Source of the DNA: Clostridia bacterium DTU025
GTDB taxonomy: Bacteria; Bacillota; DTU025
Assembly: GCA_001513145.1 (NCBI GenBank)
Contig: LFSP01000021.1
Span: forward strand, 15,934 to 79,933
Length of the DNA: 64,000 nt
Direction of reading: 5' to 3'
Every line of letters starts with the position of its first letter. The first letter of the stretch is position 1. This document shows, piece by piece, positions 12,057-53,619 of this stretch. The notes beneath the pieces are model-generated. The model was not told where the DNA came from. It saw only the letters and a program-made list of their open reading frames with translations, and did no database searches. The translations under genes and the position numbers were made by a program.

Positions 12057-12100
12057 CTCGAGTTGACCCGTAGCAGGCGAAATACTGGGGAGGACTTCGC

Positions 12101-14101
12101 ATGAACAGGCAACCTTATTACATAACTACCCCGATCTATTACGTGAACGACCTGCCTCACCTGGGGCACGCTTACACCACCGTGGCGTGCGACGCCATGG
12201 CGAGATACAAGAGGATGCGCGGATACGACGTGTTCTTCCTCACCGGCACCGACGAGCACGGTCAGAAGATCGAGCGTAAGGCGGTGGCTGAGGGTTTCAC
12301 ACCGCAGGCCTACGTGGACAAGATCGCTGAGAGCTTCGTGCAGCTCTGGGAGACGCTGGACATCTCCAACGATGGCTTCATACGCACCACCGACCCTCGA
12401 CACGTCAAAGTGGTGCAAAGGGTGTTCCAGCAGCTCCTGGACAACGACGACATCTATAAAGGAAGCTACGAGGGGTGGTACTGCACCCCGTGCGAAGCCT
12501 TCTTCCCAGAGAGCCAGCTGGTTGACGGAAAGTGCCCGGACTGCGGCCGCGACGTGGAATGGACCCAGGAGGAAGCCTACTTCTTCCGCCTGTCGAAGTA
12601 CGGCAGGCCCCTGCTGGACCACATAGCGACACATCCGGAGTTCATAGAGCCGTCGTCCAGGCGCAATGAGATGGTGCGTTTCATCGAAGGGGGCCTTGAG
12701 GACCTGTGCGTGTCGCGCACCACCTTCACGTGGGGGATCCCGGTCCCGTTTGCGCCAGGCCATGTCGCCTACGTGTGGATAGACGCCCTCACCAACTATC
12801 TCACCGCCATAGGCTACCTGGGCGATGCGGAGATGTTCAACAAGTACTGGCCCGCGGACGTGCACGTCATGGGCAAGGAGATCGTGCGCTTCCACTCGGT
12901 GATCTGGCCGGCTATACTGATGTCCCTGGGCCTTCCCCTGCCGAAGCAGGTGTTCGGTCACGGCTGGTGGACGGTGGAAGGCGAGAAGATGTCCAAGTCC
13001 AAGGGCAACGTCATCAAGCCTGACGAATACGCCGCGGAGTTCGGCGTAGACGCGGTGCGCTACTTCATGCTGCGGGAGGTGCCGTTCGGGCAAGACGGCG
13101 ACTTCTCGAGAATGAACTTCATCTACCGCGTGAACGCGGACCTGGCGAATGACCTGGGGAACCTCTTGAGCAGGGCCACCGCCATGATAATCAAGTTCTG
13201 CGACGGCAAGGTGCCTGAGCCCGGTGTGCAGGAGGAGCCCGACAGGCTCCTTCCGGAGCTTGCAGCGGAGGTGCTGGAGGGCGCCGCTGCCGCCTACGAC
13301 AGGCTGGCGTTCAGCGACGCTTTGGCGGAAGTGTTCCGCCTGGTGGGGGCGGCTAACAAGTACATCGACGACGTTGCTCCCTGGAACCTGGCCAAAACCG
13401 AAGAGGGCAAGAGCAGGCTGGGCACTGTGCTCTACAACATCGCGGAGACTGTGCGGGTGTCGGCGGTGATGCTGGCGCCTGTGCTGACGCGGGGCCCGAG
13501 GCAGCTCTGGTACCAGCTTGGCATAGACGGCTCACCTGAGGAGGCCGGCTGGGAGGCGGCCCGCTGGGGCGGCCTGAAGCCAGGCACGCAGGTTAGGCGT
13601 GGCGACCCGGTGTACCCCAGGGTGGACGCCAAGGCGGAGGCACAGCGGCTCAAGGTAGCGGGCGGTTCGGCCAAGGCTGAAGCGGCTGCCCCGGCCAAAG
13701 TCACGGATGCTGAGCCTGCGGGACAGCCCGGACGGGGCGCGGAGGTTCAAGCGGCGCCGCCGGCCCAGGAGCAGATCACCATCGAGGACTTCGCCCGCAT
13801 AGACCTGCGGGTGGCCACGGTTCTTGAGGCTGAGGTGGTGAAGGGCTCCGACAAGCTGCTGAAGCTGCAGGTTGACCTGGGCTCCGAGCGGCGCCAGATC
13901 GTCGCTGGCATCGCAAAGCACTACGTCCCTGAGGACCTTGTGGGCAAGCAGGTGGTTGTAGTGGCCAACCTCAAGCCGGCGAAGCTGAGAGGCGAGATCT
14001 CCAACGGCATGTTGCTGGCGGCCTCCAGCGCCGGCGAGCCAGTGGTGGTGGCGGTGGTCAGCCCTGAAAAGGACCTGCCCGCCGGGAGCAAGGTGAAATA
14101 G
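12101..14101 (+). CDS. metG: Methionyl-tRNA synthetase with C-terminal tRNA-binding (EMAP/Trbp111-like) domain
   Basis: HLGHAYT (HIGH), KMSKS, Zn knuckle CPDCGRD, and a C-terminal ITIEDFARIDLRVATV...LLKLQVDLG domain. Confidence 0.95.
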   Translation: MNRQPYYITTPIYYVNDLPHLGHAYTTVACDAMARYKRMRGYDVFFLTGTDEHGQKIERKAVAEGFTPQAYVDKIAESFVQLWETLDISNDGFIRTTDPRHVKVVQRVFQQLLDNDDIYKGSYEGWYCTPCEAFFPESQLVDGKCPDCGRDVEWTQEEAYFFRLSKYGRPLLDHIATHPEFIEPSSRRNEMVRFIEGGLEDLCVSRTTFTWGIPVPFAPGHVAYVWIDALTNYLTAIGYLGDAEMFNKYWPADVHVMGKEIVRFHSVIWPAILMSLGLPLPKQVFGHGWWTVEGEKMSKSKGNVIKPDEYAAEFGVDAVRYFMLREVPFGQDGDFSRMNFIYRVNADLANDLGNLLSRATAMIIKFCDGKVPEPGVQEEPDRLLPELAAEVLEGAAAAYDRLAFSDALAEVFRLVGAANKYIDDVAPWNLAKTEEGKSRLGTVLYNIAETVRVSAVMLAPVLTRGPRQLWYQLGIDGSPEEAGWEAARWGGLKPGTQVRRGDPVYPRVDAKAEAQRLKVAGGSAKAEAAAPAKVTDAEPAGQPGRGAEVQAAPPAQEQITIEDFARIDLRVATVLEAEVVKGSDKLLKLQVDLGSERRQIVAGIAKHYVPEDLVGKQVVVVANLKPAKLRGEISNGMLLAASSAGEPVVVAVVSPEKDLPAGSKVK

Positions 14102-35096: not shown

Positions 35097-35140
35097 GAGA
35101 GCCCCCGCCAAGCACAGGCAGGGGCTCTCTCGTGTTGATT
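35097..35140 (+). terminator. Hairpin GAGAGCCCC-N15-GGGGCUCUC followed by GUGUUGAUUUG
   Basis: 9-bp perfect stem in the intergenic region upstream of the helicase gene. Confidence 0.3.
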
Positions 35141-38896: not shown

Positions 38897-39556
38897 GTGA
38901 ACCTTGACTTCTCGATAATCCCGGGGGTCATGCCTGCTCTGCTCGCCGGCGCGAGGCTAACGGTGGAGTTGGCGACCATAGCCGTGGCAATAGGCCTGGT
39001 GATCGGGTCATTCGTTGGGATCGCTAGGGTGGGCCATGTTCGCATCGTGAGGCTGCTGGCCGGCGCGTATGTGGATTTCATAAGAGGGACTCCGCTGCTG
39101 GTGCAGCTGTTTCTTGTGTACTTCGGCTTGCCGTCTCTCATCGGCAGGCCGGTTCCGCCCTTTGTGGCCGCGATAGCGGCGATGGGCATCAACAGCGGCG
39201 CATACGTTGCCGAAATTGTCAGGGCGGGGATTCAGGCCATCGACAGGGGGCAGACGGAAGCCGCGAGGTCGCTTGGCCTCACCGCCGCGCAGACCATGAG
39301 ATACGTGATATTCCCCCAGGCGATACGGCGGATCATCCCTCCCCTGGGCAACGAGTTCATCGCCCTCCTGAAGGACTCGTCGCTGGTGTCGGTGATAGCC
39401 CTGGAGGAGCTGCTTCGGAAAGGGCAGGTGGTGATCACCAGGACGTTCCGTCCGTTCGAGGTGTACACGGTTATCGCCATCCTGTACCTCATCATGACCC
39501 TGGCCATCTCCAAGCTGGTGAGCTGGTCTGAGAGGAAGCTGAAGATAGTTGATTGA
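38897..39556 (+). CDS. Polar amino-acid ABC transporter permease (His/Gln/Arg family)
   Basis: EAA loop ([22 protein letters not shown]). Start trimmed to a GTG after a GGAGGAG RBS. Confidence 0.85.
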
Positions 39557-43186: not shown

Positions 43187-43624
43187 TCACTTCGCCAGGA
43201 GTATCCGCCCGCCTACCGCGATCAGGATGATGCCGGCGATCTTTATCGGGCTGAACCTGATCGGCTCTGCGCCGAACCAGCCTAGGTGGTCGATGACTGC
43301 GGCGAAGCCGAGCTGGCCCAGGATGATGCCGGTGGTGGCGTTGACTGCCCCGGCTCTCTCGATGGCGTGCGCCACAGCCGCTGTGATGGCAGGCCCCACA
43401 AGGCCACCAGTGTATGCCCACCATGGGGCCTTGGCCAGGTTGCGCAGAGCGAGGTTGCCTGTGGTGCCGCTGAGCGTCATGTAGACGGCCGACACCACGG
43501 TGCCAGCGGCCATGACGATGAACGTGGCAACGCTCAGGCTGATGGCGGAGGATGCCGCGGCGTTCACAGCGCCTTGAAATGCCATGGCCACGCCGCTGAG
43601 GGCCGCTATGATAGTGGCGTACAT
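43187..43624 (-). CDS. Small DMT-superfamily membrane protein (DUF606/YdcZ-like)
   Basis: ~146 aa with 4-5 TM helices. Start trimmed to MYATIIAALSG. The longer N-terminus in the ORF track is less likely. Confidence 0.5.
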   Translation of the reverse strand: MYATIIAALSGVAMAFQGAVNAAASSAISLSVATFIVMAAGTVVSAVYMTLSGTTGNLALRNLAKAPWWAYTGGLVGPAITAAVAHAIERAGAVNATTGIILGQLGFAAVIDHLGWFGAEPIRFSPIKIAGIILIAVGGRILLAK

Positions 43625-43849
43625 CGTGTCCCCGCTTTCCTGTTTTCCAGTGATTCCCGTACAACGCCGAGCCGCTCTCTTCAGTATTCCCAGCGCGCCG
43701 GCATCGGTTGCGGCGATGGAGCGGAAGGAGTTGCCGCTCTCGGGTAGAATACTCATCCTGTTCAGTACCATTGGGAAGCAGAATGGGAGTTCATGTCGCT
43801 CTCCCGAGCTTCTCGAAAAATGTAGACCACAATGAGGAGGTAATGTGGA

Positions 43850-45460
43850 ATGCGCAGATTTGCGGCGATACTGGCCAGCGCGCTAGTGGTGATGATGCTG
43901 GCTACCACCGGCATAGTCGCCTAGGAGAGGCTCGCCCGCAACCAGAGGCTGAGCTACAACGTGGGTGCGGAGCCGGCAACCCTTGACCCCGCACTGTCCA
44001 CTGGTGTCCCGGAGGCCATCGTTGAGCTGAGCTGCTTCGAGGGTCTCACCAGGATGGACGCCAACAACATCCCCCAGCCTGCGATCGCAGAGAGCTGGAC
44101 CATCAGCGATGATGGGCTTGTGTACACTTTCAAGCTTCGCCAGGCTAAGTGGAACAATGGCGAACCTGTGACCGCTCATGACTTCGAGTGGTCGTGGAAG
44201 CGCGCTCTCGACCCCGAGACCGCTGCGGAGTACGCGTACCAGCTGTACTACATCAAGAACGGTGAAGCTTACAACACCGGAGCGATCACCGATCCCGACC
44301 TCGTAGGGGTCAAGGCCCTTGACGATTACACTCTCCAGGTGACGCTGGAACAGCCCACCACCTATTTCCTGCAGCTGTGCGCGTTCCCGACCCTCATGCC
44401 GGTCTACCGCAAGGTCGTGGAGGCCGACCCTGAGGCCTGGTTCTACAACGTCAACAACTACATCGGCAACGGCCCGTTCAAGATCGTGCGTTGGGAGCAC
44501 AACTCCAAGATCGATCTCGTGCCCAACGAGCATTACTGGAACAGGGACGCCATCAAGCTCACGAACCTCACCTTCTACCTCATCGAGGATACCCAGACCG
44601 CTCTGTCGATGTTCGATACGGGCGAGCTCGACATGTTCGATTCGCCGCCTGCCACCGAGATCGAGGGCCTGAAGCAGCGCGGCGTGCTCTTAATCAACGA
44701 CTACCTCGGCACCTACTACTACATGTTCAACGTCACCGCCGAGCCCCTCGATGACGTGCGCGTGCGCAAGGCGCTGACGATGGCCATCGACCGCCAGGAG
44801 CTCATCGACCGCGTGGTCCGCGGCGGCCAGCTGCCTGCCTACGCCTATGTGCCGTTCGGAATGCCGGGCGGAACCGTTGGCAGCGACTTCCGTGAGGAGG
44901 GCGGCGACCTCTACAAGGAGGACTTGGAGGAGGCCAAGAAGCTTCTGGCTGAGGCCGGCTACCCCGACGGCAAAGGCTTCCCGACCCTGGCGATCCTCTA
45001 CAACACCAGCGAGAACCACAAGAAGATCGCCGAAGCCATCCAGGAGATGTGGAAGAAGAACCTGGGCATCGACGTCAGGCTGACGAACCAGGAGTGGCAG
45101 GTCTACCTCGACTCCCGTGACGCCCTGGATTACCAGGTGGCGCGCGCGGGCTGGATCGGCGACTACGTGGATCCCATGACGTTCCTGGATATGTGGATGA
45201 CTGACAGCGGCAATAACGACTCCGGCTGGGGCAACCCCAGGTTCGACGAGCTCATCGTTGCCGCTCGCAGCAACATGGACCCCGCCGCACGCGCCAAGCA
45301 GCTGCATGAGGCGGAGAAGATCCTGATCGCCGACGAGATGGTGGTCATGCCGATCTACTTCTACACCAACCTGAACGTGGTCCAGCCGTGGGTGCGTGGC
45401 GTTGAGTTCTCGCCGCTCGGCTTCATCAACTTCGTCAACGCCTACGTGCTCGAGAGATAA
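43850..45460 (+). pseudogene. oppA: Oligopeptide ABC transporter substrate-binding protein OppA, interrupted by an in-frame TAG between the signal peptide and the mature domain
   Basis: ATG at 43850 with a GAGGAGG RBS encodes MRRFAAILASALVVMMLATTGIVA, then a TAG at ~43922-43924. The same frame continues ERLARNQRLSYNVGAEPATLDPAL..., the conserved OppA mature N-terminus. The ORF track restarts at the GTG at 43961. Confidence 0.5.
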
Positions 45461-45566: not shown

Positions 45567-46496
45567 TTGGGATCCTACATCCTTAAGAGGCTCGTGTCAG
45601 GTGTACTCGTGGTGTTGATAGTCGCCACCGCGACCTTCATGTTGATGAGGTCGATCCCCGGTGGGCCGTTCCGCAGGGAGAAGGCGCTTCCTGCTGCGAT
45701 CCAGAGGAACATTGAAGCCAGGTACAAACTGAACGATCCGTTGTGGAAACAATATCTCGACTATATGAAGAACATGCTGCGGGGGGATTTCGGCCCGTCC
45801 TTCAAGTACATCGGCCGGTCGGTGAACAGCATCATCGAAGACGGGTTCCCGGTGAGCGCCGTGTTGGGCGGCGTCACGATAATCTTCTCCCTGGTGGTGG
45901 GCATACCAGCTGGGATCATCTCCGCCCTGAACCAGAACAAATGGCAGGACAACCTGGCCATGGGCATCGCGATAGTCGGCGTGTCGGTGCCTAGCTTCGT
46001 CATGGCCACCTTGCTGATGTACGTGTTTGCGGTCAAGCTGCGCTGGTTCCCTGCGGCGATGTGGGGGACTCCAAGGCACGTGGTCCTGCCGATGCTGGCG
46101 CTGAGCGCGTTCCCTACAGCGTTCTTTGCGCGCTTGATGCGTTCCAGCACCCTTGACGTGCTCTCGCAGGACTACATCCGCACCGCCCGTTCCAAGGGGC
46201 TTTCGTGGGCGGCAGTAGTCTACAAGCATGTGCTGAAGAACTCGGTGCTGCCGATCATCACGTACCTCGGGCCGCAGGCTGCGGCGATCCTCACAGGCAG
46301 CTTCGTGGTGGAAAGCATCTTTGCCATACCGGGCTTGGGCCGGTATTACGTTACCAGCATCTATAACAGGGACTACACCACCATCATGGGTGTGACCATC
46401 TTCTACTGCATCATCCTAGTGGCGCTGAACCTCCTGGTGGACATCGCCTACAGCTGGCTGGATCCCAGGATAAAGCTGACCGAGGCAAAGGAGTGA
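45567..46496 (+). CDS. oppB: Oligopeptide ABC transporter permease
   Basis: BPD_transp_1 permease with EAA-like loop, 309 aa. Confidence 0.9.
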   Translation: MGSYILKRLVSGVLVVLIVATATFMLMRSIPGGPFRREKALPAAIQRNIEARYKLNDPLWKQYLDYMKNMLRGDFGPSFKYIGRSVNSIIEDGFPVSAVLGGVTIIFSLVVGIPAGIISALNQNKWQDNLAMGIAIVGVSVPSFVMATLLMYVFAVKLRWFPAAMWGTPRHVVLPMLALSAFPTAFFARLMRSSTLDVLSQDYIRTARSKGLSWAAVVYKHVLKNSVLPIITYLGPQAAAILTGSFVVESIFAIPGLGRYYVTSIYNRDYTTIMGVTIFYCIILVALNLLVDIAYSWLDPRIKLTEAKE

Positions 46497-47416
46497 TCGC
46501 AGTGGAGTACTCACCAGAGCTGTTCCAACAGGTACCGAAGGACATCGCCAGCGCCGAGGCTATCGTGCGGCCGTCCGTGACTTACTGGCAGGACGCGTGG
46601 CGCCGACTGAAGCAGAACAAGATGGCCATGGTGGGCCTGTGGACCATAGCGGCGATCCTGCTCATAGCCATTTTTGGCCCGATGGTTTCACCGTACAGCT
46701 ACTCTGACCAAGACCTGGCCTCTCAGAACCAGGGGCCCAGCCGCGCGCACTGGCTTGGCACGGACGACTTAGGCCGCGACATGCTGACCCGTCTCATGTA
46801 CGGCGCGAGGATATCGCTGACGGTGGGCATCATGGCCAGCGTGCTGAACCTGACGGTGGGCGTGATATACGGCGGCATCTCCGGCTATTACGGCGGCCGC
46901 GTCGACAACATCATGATGCGCATCGTCGAGATCCTGACGGCCATACCGATGCTGCTGTACGTGATCCTGCTGATGGTCATCCTCGAGCCTGGTCTGCAGA
47001 ACATCCTGATCGCCCTGGGCGTGGTGTACTGGCTGAGCATGGCCAGGATCGTGAGGGGGCAGGTGCTGAGCCTCAAGGAGCAGGACTTCGTGCTCGCGGC
47101 GCGCACCATCGGCGCCAGCGACTGGCGGATAATTCTGAAACACTTGGTGCCCAACGCCATGGGCCCCATCATCGTCACGGCTACGCTGAACATCCCGTCG
47201 GCCATCTTCACTGAGGCGTTCCTCAGCTTCATCGGCCTGGGCGTTAGCGCCCCGATGGCCAGCTGGGGCGCGCTGGCGTCAGATGCGCTTCAGGGGTTCC
47301 GCACATACCCGTGGCAGCTGTTCTACCCGGCTATAGCGATCAGCATAACTATGTTCGCGTTCAACTTCCTCGGCGACGGCCTGAGGGATGCGCTTGACCC
47401 CAAGCAGCGCAAATGA
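46493..47416 (+). CDS. oppC: Oligopeptide ABC transporter permease
   Basis: OppC-type N-terminal region and permease core. Start overlaps the oppB stop. Confidence 0.9.
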   Translation: MIAVEYSPELFQQVPKDIASAEAIVRPSVTYWQDAWRRLKQNKMAMVGLWTIAAILLIAIFGPMVSPYSYSDQDLASQNQGPSRAHWLGTDDLGRDMLTRLMYGARISLTVGIMASVLNLTVGVIYGGISGYYGGRVDNIMMRIVEILTAIPMLLYVILLMVILEPGLQNILIALGVVYWLSMARIVRGQVLSLKEQDFVLAARTIGASDWRIILKHLVPNAMGPIIVTATLNIPSAIFTEAFLSFIGLGVSAPMASWGALASDALQGFRTYPWQLFYPAIAISITMFAFNFLGDGLRDALDPKQRK

Positions 47417-48456
47417 TGGGCAACGCACACAAGGGGGAATATTCGTTGGACAGACTGCTTGAAGTCACCAACCTTCATACGTCGTTCCGCACCTACGCCG
47501 GGGTGGTGCAGGCCGTCAGAGGGGTTAGCTTCCATGTGAACAGAGGAGAGGCCGTGGCCCTCGTGGGAGAGTCGGGATGCGGCAAGAGCGTCACCGCCTT
47601 GTCCATAATGCAGCTGGTGCCGCCGCCCGGAAAGGTGACGGAGGGGTGCATAGCTTTCGACGGCAAGGATCTTACGGCCATGACCGAGCGGGAGATGCAG
47701 CACGTCAGGGGAAACGAAATCGGCATGATATTCCAGGACCCTATGACCTCGCTGAACCCGGTGCTCTCCATCAAGACGCAGATCGTTGAGTCGCTTCGGC
47801 TGCACCAGAACCTAAGGGGCGAGGCTGCCACCCATCGGGCGTTGGAGCTTCTGCGCATGGTGGGGATCCCTTCGCCCGAGCGCAGGCTTGCGGCGTACCC
47901 GCACCAGTTCAGCGGCGGGATGAGGCAGCGCGTGATGATAGCCATGGCGCTGGCGTGCAGCCCGAAGCTCCTGATCGCTGACGAACCCACCACGGCCCTT
48001 GACGTGACCATCCAGGCGCAGATAATCGAGCTCATGAAGGAGCTCAAGGAGAAGCTGGGCATGTCCATCATCCTGATCACCCACGACCTGGGCGTGGTGG
48101 CAGGCCTAGCGCAGCGCGTGGTGGTGATGTACGCAGGCAAAGTGGCGGAGCAGGGAACGGTGGACGAGATATACAAGAGCCCACAGCACCCGTACACCTG
48201 GGGGCTACTGAAGTCCGTGCCCAGGCTGGACGCCACTCGCAAGGACAAGCTCGTGCCGATATACGGCCAGCCGCCTGACCTCATCAGTCCGCCGCAGGGC
48301 TGTCCGTTCGCTCCGCGATGCGACTGGGCGATGAACATCTGCAAGACGGCACAGCCCGAGTTCACGACGCTCAGCGACACCCACCAGGTGGCGTGCTGGC
48401 TGCAGCATTCGATGGCTCCGGCCAATCCCAGAGTGAAGAGAGGGGGCGCAGCGTGA
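47413..48456 (+). CDS. oppD: Oligopeptide ABC transporter ATP-binding protein
   Basis: [35 protein letters not shown], and the C-terminal oligopeptide-type extension. Confidence 0.9.
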
Positions 48457-49427
48457 TGGCACCACTTATAGAAGTCAAGAACCTGAAGAAGTACTTCGTA
48501 GTCGCCAGGACCAGGCTGGGTGCCCCCAAGAGCTGGCTGAAGGCCGTCGACGACGTGAGCTTCACCATCGACCGCGGCGAGACCCTGGGCCTCGTGGGCG
48601 AGTCGGGCTGCGGCAAGACCACTGTGGGGCGCACCATCTGCCGACTTTACGAGCCCACAGGCGGCGAGGTGTTATTCGACGGGCAGCCCGTCTTCAAGCT
48701 CGACCGCCGCGAGATGCTGGCGATGAGGCGCAAGATGCAGATGATATTCCAGGACCCTTACGCCTCCCTCAACCCGAGAATGACAGTGGGCGACATCGTG
48801 GGCGAGCCCATTGACATACACCGTTTGGCCTCCAGCAAGGCCGAGCGCGACGAGATGGTGCACGAGCTCCTGCACACTGTGGGGCTCAGCCCGGAGCACG
48901 CCGCCAGGTTCCCGCACGAGTTCAGCGGAGGCCAGCGCCAGAGGATCGGAGTGGCCAGGGCGCTCGCGGTGAACCCCAGCTTCATCATATGCGATGAGCC
49001 CATCTCCGCCCTGGACGTGTCAATCCAGGCGCAGATCATCAACATGCTGGAGGAGCTCCAGGAGAAGCGCGGGCTCTCGTACCTGTTCATCGCTCACGAC
49101 CTTTCCATGGTGAAGCACACCAGCCGGCGCGTGGCCGTGATGTACCTGGGCAAGATCGTGGAGCTAGCGGAAAGCGTGGAGCTGTACCGCAATCCGCTGC
49201 ACCCGTACACCAAGGCCCTGCTTTCGGCCATCCCCATCCCGGATCCGGATGTGGAGCGCACCAGGCACCGCATAATCCTGGAGGGAGACGTGCCCAGCCC
49301 CATCGATCCGCCTGCCGGGTGCCGGTTCAGGGGCAGGTGCAGCTACGCCATGCCGGTGTGCGCGGAGCAAGAGCCACCCATGCGGGACGTGGGCGACGGC
49401 CACCACGTAGCGTGTCACCTCATATAG
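48456..49427 (+). CDS. oppF: Oligopeptide ABC transporter ATP-binding protein
   Basis: [35 protein letters not shown]. Start trimmed to [10 protein letters not shown] (TGATG overlap with oppD). Confidence 0.9.
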
Positions 49428-53316: not shown

Positions 53317-53619
53317 TTGATAGTCACGAACGTGAAGGTTCGCGCAGTGGACGTGTCCGGAAGGATGAAAGCGCTGGCCACCATCACCCTTGACGGCGCC
53401 TTCGTCGTTCACGATCTCAGGGTGATCCAAGGAGATAAAGGGCTGTTCGTCGCCATGCCCAGCAGGCGGGGCGCCGACGGCAAGTTCCGCGACGTGGCCC
53501 ACCCCATCACTCAGGAACTCAGGGACACGATCGAGGCAGCGGTTCTCCAGGCGTACACGGCTGAACACGAGCACGAGCAGCAGCACGAGCAGCAGCACGA
53601 GCATCAGCAGGGCGCTTAA
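53317..53619 (+). CDS. spoVG: Septation/sporulation protein SpoVG
   Basis: [39 protein letters not shown]... is near-identical to SpoVG. C-terminal HEQQ repeat. Confidence 0.92.

Follow-up and report, generated by a model that had tools for sequence, protein, structure and literature searches.

In Bacillus subtilis, OppA (Spo0KA), the binding protein of the Opp oligopeptide transporter, is a lipoprotein. Spontaneous opp null mutants are selected by toxic peptides, and spo0K mutants provide a further example of opp loss. In the E. coli lacI gene, amber mutations at CAG codons lying within CCAGG were reportedly identified by Coulondre and Miller as hot spots of 5-methylcytosine deamination. The bacterial pyrrolysine proteins that we know of belong to methylamine methyltransferase families, and OppA is not one of these. 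Here we analyse an oppA gene carrying an in-frame amber codon at the end of its signal peptide. The gene lies within a 64,000-nucleotide stretch of the Clostridia bacterium DTU025 assembly GCA_001513145.1 (contig LFSP01000021.1), hereafter the window; the host is a spore-forming species of the Bacillota, high in GC and uncultured, from biogas and anaerobic-digester reactors. In contrast to B. subtilis OppA, the window protein has a signal peptide of signal peptidase I (SPase I) type with no lipobox Cys. The TAG very probably represents a segregating Gln25-to-amber loss-of-function allele, carried by a minority sub-lineage that coexists with strains in which the gene is intact.

The elements at the 5' end of oppA, in window coordinates, are as follows.

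43834-43840, plus strand: Shine-Dalgarno sequence GAGGAGG of oppA, read in the sequence, with a 9-nucleotide spacer to the ATG at 43850
43850-43921, plus strand: oppA codons 1-24, signal peptide MRRFAAILASALVVMMLATTGIVA, SPase I type, without lipobox Cys
43915, plus strand: synonymous marker (Ile22 ATA; ATC in all CAG contigs), in perfect linkage with 43922 over 31 contigs
43922-43924, plus strand: amber codon TAG, corresponding to Gln25 (CAG) in the majority allele
43925-45460, plus strand: remainder of oppA, codons 26-536 and TAA, with a complete SBP_bac_5 domain, identical to the intact allele P0122
43961-43963, plus strand: GTG (Val38), first in-frame restart past the TAG, chosen by gene callers for a 499-residue product

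Reading and translating this segment confirmed the layout given by an earlier sequence-only reading, namely a GAGGAGG, an ATG at 43850, 24 signal-peptide codons, the TAG and a continuation in the same frame. An in-frame TAA four codons 5' of the ATG makes 43850 the sole possible start in the oppA frame, and the AGGAGG motif is kept in the closest other species (contig L001). After the TAG, 511 further codons follow in frame, beginning ERLARNQRLSYNVGAEPATLDPAL, up to the TAA at 45458-45460; their translation opens ERLARNQRLSYNVGAEPATLDP. That this part encodes a mature OppA domain, as had been claimed, is borne out by the protein comparisons. PF00496 (SBP_bac_5) is recorded over the whole mature protein for P0001, the database match discussed below, and for all relatives, and the best solved relative is the B. 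subtilis OppA (PDB 8ARE, E=2.6e-128, residues 33-532); other structure matches include OppA 1B05 (E=3.1e-108) and DppE 8AY0, the latter among the best solved relatives. The closest NCBIfam model, an OppA equivalog (PRK15104), scored 408.6 bits, below its cut-off of 947, and the window protein is accordingly best described, as judged from sequence, as OppA-like and not as an equivalog of the enterobacterial OppA.

Residues 24-134 align without any shift to residues 5-115 of mature Salmonella OppA (1B05), placing the TAG within a few residues of the junction between signal peptide and mature protein. The proposal that the stop separates the two thus stood to within those few residues; the exact cleavage site is a prediction (IVA followed by Q). 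The lipobox pattern [LVI][ASTVI][GAS]C was not found, and residues 1-60 of the oppA product contain no Cys; the signal is of SPase I type and not a Bacillus-like lipoprotein signal. The signal peptides of relatives share the same n-, h- and c-regions and end in FAA or AFA. SPase I type signals lacking a lipobox Cys also occur in the closest relatives, P0002-P0009 and P0011, an uncommon trait among binding proteins of monoderm Bacillota; relative P0010 (63% identical) does carry ...VVGC. Such signals would be in keeping with a diderm Bacillota lineage that has a periplasm-like compartment. The 499-residue product of a restart at GTG 43961 has no export signal, as had been noted, and the sole Shine-Dalgarno-like motif available to this codon is an AGAGG 12 nucleotides upstream.

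The evidence for a segregating allele comes from contigs of the same species, all of them matching the window at 99.6-100% identity across 2-21 kb. Thirty-one public contigs could be read at the site: six have the amber codon and 25 have CAG. The former read ...GGC ATA GTC GCC TAG GAG..., the same as the window, and the latter ...GGC ATC GTC GCC CAG GAG... The amber contigs, which come from three assembly pipelines (Logan, ENA/SPAdes and JGI) with differing accession series, are listed here.

L083 (ERZ2847898)
L084 (SRR3166092)
L085 (SRR2016852)
L086 (SRR15838745)
L111 (JGI 3300038957)
L112 (JGI 3300038956)

Position 49136 is covered by five amber sequences (the window and four public contigs), and four of them share a further synonymous change there. 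Together, these data indicate that the amber codon marks a sub-lineage of one near-clonal species, with the allele making up roughly 5-8% of assemblies. The protein search agreed. It returned a 536-residue match, P0001, with 100% identity over the full length and Q where the window has the stop, while P0122 has Gln25 and is identical to the window protein at the other 535 residues; P0122 is found in 34 contigs by cluster listing, or 56 index blocks. The codon is a sense codon in conspecifics and orthologues, and the frame is otherwise kept, which is what characterises a nonsense allele. The existence of the otherwise identical intact allele singles out the nonsense mutation among the three origins that the sequence-only reading had offered; the other two, a sequencing or assembly error and readthrough or pyrrolysine insertion, did not hold up and are weighed below.

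The stop does not define a fixed pseudogene, but rather a minority allele that occurs beside an intact one, even within a single sample: of the contigs assembled from run SRR3166092, L084 (Logan) has TAG and L087 (MEGAHIT) has CAG. This run belongs to BioProject PRJNA283612 (SRP058235), from a DTU study of biogas-upgrading reactors (PMC5985405). In the UBA metagenome-assembled genome (MAG) GCA_002385365.1, a run of N (L098, 9649-9914) spans exactly window positions 43915-43967, which hold three polymorphic oppA sites, with the result that the deposited annotation shows a truncated, 468-residue OppA (P0130). The interval 43915-43967 is a place where a mixed population would break the assembly graph. 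Because it results from this gap, the 468-residue form was dismissed as a mutation in its own right. The scaffold contains another run of N around window position 39366, flanked by a 45-nucleotide duplication. A frameshift "allele" (P0133/P0134) was rejected as well, its source contig L097 standing at 4.6x coverage with about 15 indels that split neighbouring genes. The single-base indels of L097 (ERZ2647865, NODE_395) interrupt oppA, oppD, oppF, pfkB, a GHMP kinase gene and others, and the resulting gene fragments stand in protein databases as though they were real variants.

The species is absent from the GTDB representative genomes searched, in which the best match was 77% identical, and two scans of the JGI metagenome contig collection gave zero matches, even with an invariant 42-mer, which suggests that this collection does not include the species.

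At the molecular level, the stop is a C-to-T transition that has turned CAG (Gln25) into TAG in the binding-protein gene of oppABCDF. Ribosomes starting at ATG 43850 would then terminate after a 24-residue signal peptide, and a product re-initiated at GTG 43961, devoid of an export signal, would be unable to reach the transporter outside the cytoplasm. Amber cells would consequently be without this OppA, save for what trace near-cognate readthrough might supply. In published E. coli work, near-cognate readthrough of UAG inserts Gln, so that very small amounts of wild-type protein would be made here.

The context of the change resembles a site of 5-methylcytosine deamination. The C>T at 43922 hits the second C of CCAGG, and the C>T at 44009 responsible for a P54S replacement hits the second C of CCCGG, likewise a CCNGG site. 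In the window, no Dcm-like footprint was detected: CCWGG had an observed/expected ratio of 0.98 (no depletion) and CTWGG one of 0.92 (no enrichment). A deamination origin is therefore suggested by resemblance only, the context fitting while the composition shows no footprint. Among G>A singletons in the flanks, four of five fall at CpG. The substitution lies in non-repetitive sequence, with no simple repeat or invertible element at the site that would indicate a phase-variable locus.

The genes around oppA have the following arrangement.

43187-43771, minus strand: divergent DMT/YdcZ-family gene, carrying a 43750 T/C polymorphism (I8V)
45567-46496, plus strand: oppB permease, intact; one protein variant, 119 contigs
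46493-47416, plus strand: oppC permease, intact; one protein variant, 140 contigs
47413-48456, plus strand: oppD ATPase, intact
48456-49427, plus strand: oppF ATPase, intact; its own stop is TAG

The gene tables of the window and of the contigs agree with the earlier statement that oppBCDF is intact. They show two BPD_transp_1 permeases and two ABC ATPases with oligo_HPY C-terminal domains as neighbours of oppA (with Pfam matches on oppF), and oppA thus encodes an OppA/DppA-type (SBP_bac_5, cluster C) binding protein within a canonical oppABCDF operon. Within the 64-kb window there is no paralogous oppA that could serve as gene-conversion donor or functional backup.

Several points weigh against a segregating loss-of-function allele. 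The loss of OppA function in amber cells is inferred from sequence, as would be any neutral, deleterious or advantageous effect of that loss. The amber allele is spread over several reactors or projects; this distribution indicates that it is not strongly counter-selected, which fits redundancy or advantage and also suppression. Amber contigs have zero further differences in oppA or oppBCDF, a result that, with sequences diverged by only about 1e-4, is uninformative in both directions and does not date the inactivation of the gene. Finally, metagenome contigs may be chimeric consensus sequences of mixed strains, making phasing past a few hundred bases uncertain. The secondary decay typical of an old pseudogene (more stops, frameshifts, loss of the operon) was not seen in the amber contigs; the mutation would appear to be young or tolerated, decay being a test of little power at this divergence.

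The stop is one of several changes crowded into the same part of the gene. The other polymorphic codons there, found in population contigs, are these.

43967, plus strand: G>T/A (A40S/A40T)
44009, plus strand: C>T (P54S)
44066-44068, plus strand: N73S

Together with the amber codon (Q25stop) they form a hot spot at 43915-44068 (codons 22-73), each change occurring in several to dozens of contigs. A 90% cluster of OppA contains 21 sequences. At least eight OppA protein variants reach appreciable frequency (34, 28, 26, 9, about 6-9, 3, 3 and 2 contigs), with the commonest accounting for only about 31% of contigs; these contig counts are non-independent, many contigs coming from time series of the same reactors. 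Besides P0122, the variants were assigned as follows.

P0123: A40S, 28 contigs
P0124: A40T, 26 contigs
P0125: N73S, 9 contigs
P0128: A40S and N73S, 3 contigs
P0001: P54S, 3 contigs
P0129: M to T near residue 338, 2 contigs
P0121 and P0126: 499-residue GTG-start product called on the amber allele, 7 and 2 contigs, respectively

Around the locus the species is otherwise extremely uniform, and the dominant sequences of other proteins of the window are represented as follows.

TlpA-like protein: 136 contigs
PAP2 protein: 133 contigs
PfkB: 120 contigs, and 25 with a different start call
Helicase: 85 contigs, and 15 with a different start call or gene call

The helicase, TlpA, PAP2, PfkB and OppD each have one dominant sequence when start-call differences are set aside, and common second forms exist for the SBP_bac_3 protein (104/40) and the DMT gene (124/56). 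The last of these concerns the 43750 T/C change (I8V in the YdcZ-like gene), 100 nucleotides upstream of the oppA ATG, whose alleles stand on 124 and 56 contigs and are found with every oppA allele class. Such a distribution suggests recombination, repeated mutation at the site or consensus assemblies that are chimeric.

One possible reading of the hot spot is an adaptive origin of the amber allele, which would refine and not replace the reading of the TAG as a segregating nonsense allele. The stop would be one of several independently arisen, favoured OppA alleles, maintained as an adaptive null or by diversifying selection; we consider this unlikely on present evidence, although it survives better than the other alternatives. 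In its favour, OppA has its eight or more variants where OppB and OppC have single ones, the split between OppA and OppB being significant (Fisher p = 1.5e-34). Five of the six variable OppA codons fall within the first 73 of 536 (p = 2.5e-4), and over 14,035 bases contig L080 and the window disagree at only three, all of them no more than 95 bp from the oppA 5' end (p = 1.3e-4). Codon 40 is tri-allelic (A, S and T). P54 adjoins residues that align with Glu32 and Val34 of Salmonella OppA, whose main chain forms hydrogen bonds with the ligand in docked and simulated tripeptide models (PMC6305025). Possible drivers of selection include escape from toxic peptides entering through Opp, altered peptide specificity or a "signal-blind" response to signalling peptides taken up by the cell. 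On the other side, the ratio of non-synonymous to synonymous changes, 6:1, is not above the 78% neutral expectation (p = 0.51), and a non-synonymous excess was accordingly rejected as proof of selection. The same clustering would be expected if the region were prone to mutation, as a highly transcribed 5' end beside a divergent promoter might be, and the non-independence of the contigs bears on all the counts. Selection on OppA and such a mutational hot spot account equally well for the 5' pattern. The fuller version of the proposal, in which oppA is under ongoing selection, with the amber as an adaptive knock-out beside ligand-facing N-terminal replacements and 20-kb flanks that are essentially invariant, is likewise doubtful. 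If it were true, a peptide imported by Opp (toxin, signal or nutrient) would shape strain competition in digesters. The concentration of oppA variants could serve as a strain-tracking marker, or as a lead on peptide-mediated interactions in reactors.

The UAG might instead be decoded, by a suppressor tRNA, by pyrrolysine machinery encoded elsewhere or through context-dependent readthrough, so that full-length, exported OppA would still be made. Persistence of the amber allele in several samples with no further decay of the operon is compatible with this. So is the position of residue 25, first or nearly first of the mature protein, where almost any amino acid should be tolerated, and the Gln inserted by near-cognate reading in E. 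coli would give back the wild type. However, the TAG is unconserved, with CAG in the majority allele and, in seven other species whose proteins are 70-77% identical, CCG, GCA or GCG (Pro or Ala) at the aligned position. TAG is moreover a common terminator, ending about 20 of the 53 likely coding open reading frames (ORFs) of the window, or some 38%, oppF included, and efficient suppression would lengthen many proteins. The ten TAG-ended ORFs that were checked are Pfam-supported genes, among them metG, the pfkB neighbour and oppF, and in several of them (MetRS, a 3D-domain protein) the Pfam domain reaches the C-terminus. The use of TAG as a genuine stop in metG (12074-14101), already cited in the sequence-only reading, is supported by a tRNA_bind domain complete to the last residue. 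Use of TAG as a terminator in this way does not match a reassigned code, and an in-frame UAG that is unconserved among orthologues, even within the species, does not match a pyrrolysine gene.

Neither a tRNA-Pyl nor a tRNA with a CUA anticodon, or any other suppressor tRNA, is present within the window. Its sole tRNA, as called by ARAGORN, is a tRNA-Gln(UUG), with the same sequence in the CAG contigs that cover it. Rfam gave only this tRNA, hence no leader RNA, attenuator or readthrough element near the site, and a promoter and terminator scan yielded no convincing result. The sequence 3' of the TAG is the same in the CAG allele, which argues against an element evolved for readthrough. Other apparent in-frame stops (ORF pairs 6238/6239 and 61639/61640) proved to be neighbouring genes of the ordinary kind, each starting at an ATG of its own. 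Altogether, decoding of the UAG seems very improbable.

A sequencing, assembly or consensus artefact in the source genome deserves almost no credence: the TAG is a single-base difference from the majority allele and MAG consensus sequences can hold errors, as L097 (4.6x) illustrates, but the two-base haplotype formed with the 43915 marker recurs in six other assemblies from the Logan, ENA/SPAdes and JGI pipelines, and the errors of L097 are indels across all genes, not a TAG substitution.

Taking the TAG as a segregating nonsense allele has practical consequences, of modest stakes. A minority lineage of an abundant digester organism is probably minus one peptide-binding protein. In annotation, this oppA should be labelled a strain-specific nonsense allele, not a 499-residue protein with a GTG start, nor an error to be polished, nor a case of recoding. 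The locus also illustrates the traces that strain mixture leaves in MAGs, with two alleles recovered from one run by two assemblers and a gap placed on the variable sites.

Two further observations concern other parts of the window. At the 3' end of spoVG (53530-53619), a 12-nucleotide repeat, CAGCAGCACGAG (QQHE unit), varies in copy number, as seen in L087 and L111; in some contigs the His/Glu/Gln-rich C-terminal tail of SpoVG is four residues longer as a result. In addition, many independent Logan contigs from different runs start or end exactly at 49157-49160, 35123-35125 and 39782. Such recurrent breaks in the assembly graph could arise from strain variation close by, or from a k-mer that also occurs in a paralogue at another place in the genome.

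Among known systems, pyrrolysine-containing methylamine methyltransferase genes share with this oppA an in-frame UAG in an otherwise intact gene; they belong to other gene families, and the window lacks a tRNA-Pyl and often uses TAG as a stop. The lacI ambers at CCAGG represent the same change, a C>T at the second C converting CAG into TAG, although in the window CCWGG is not depleted and CTWGG not enriched, as CCWGG methylation would predict. B. subtilis OppA (Spo0KA; PDB 8ARE/8ARN) shares the SBP_bac_5 domain and the operon order with the window locus, whereas the window oppA is interrupted at codon 25 in the amber allele; any link to sporulation or competence through Spo0K would be by resemblance only. 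The opp mutants selected by toxic peptides, and the spo0K mutants, have in common with the amber allele a null mutation of the binding protein in an otherwise intact opp operon, arising and persisting in a population. The window allele differs in coming from natural or engineered reactor communities with no known selective agent, which makes selection conjectural in its case. As a nonsense allele, the stop belongs to the most ordinary category; the hot spot at the oppA 5' end is more unusual than the stop itself.

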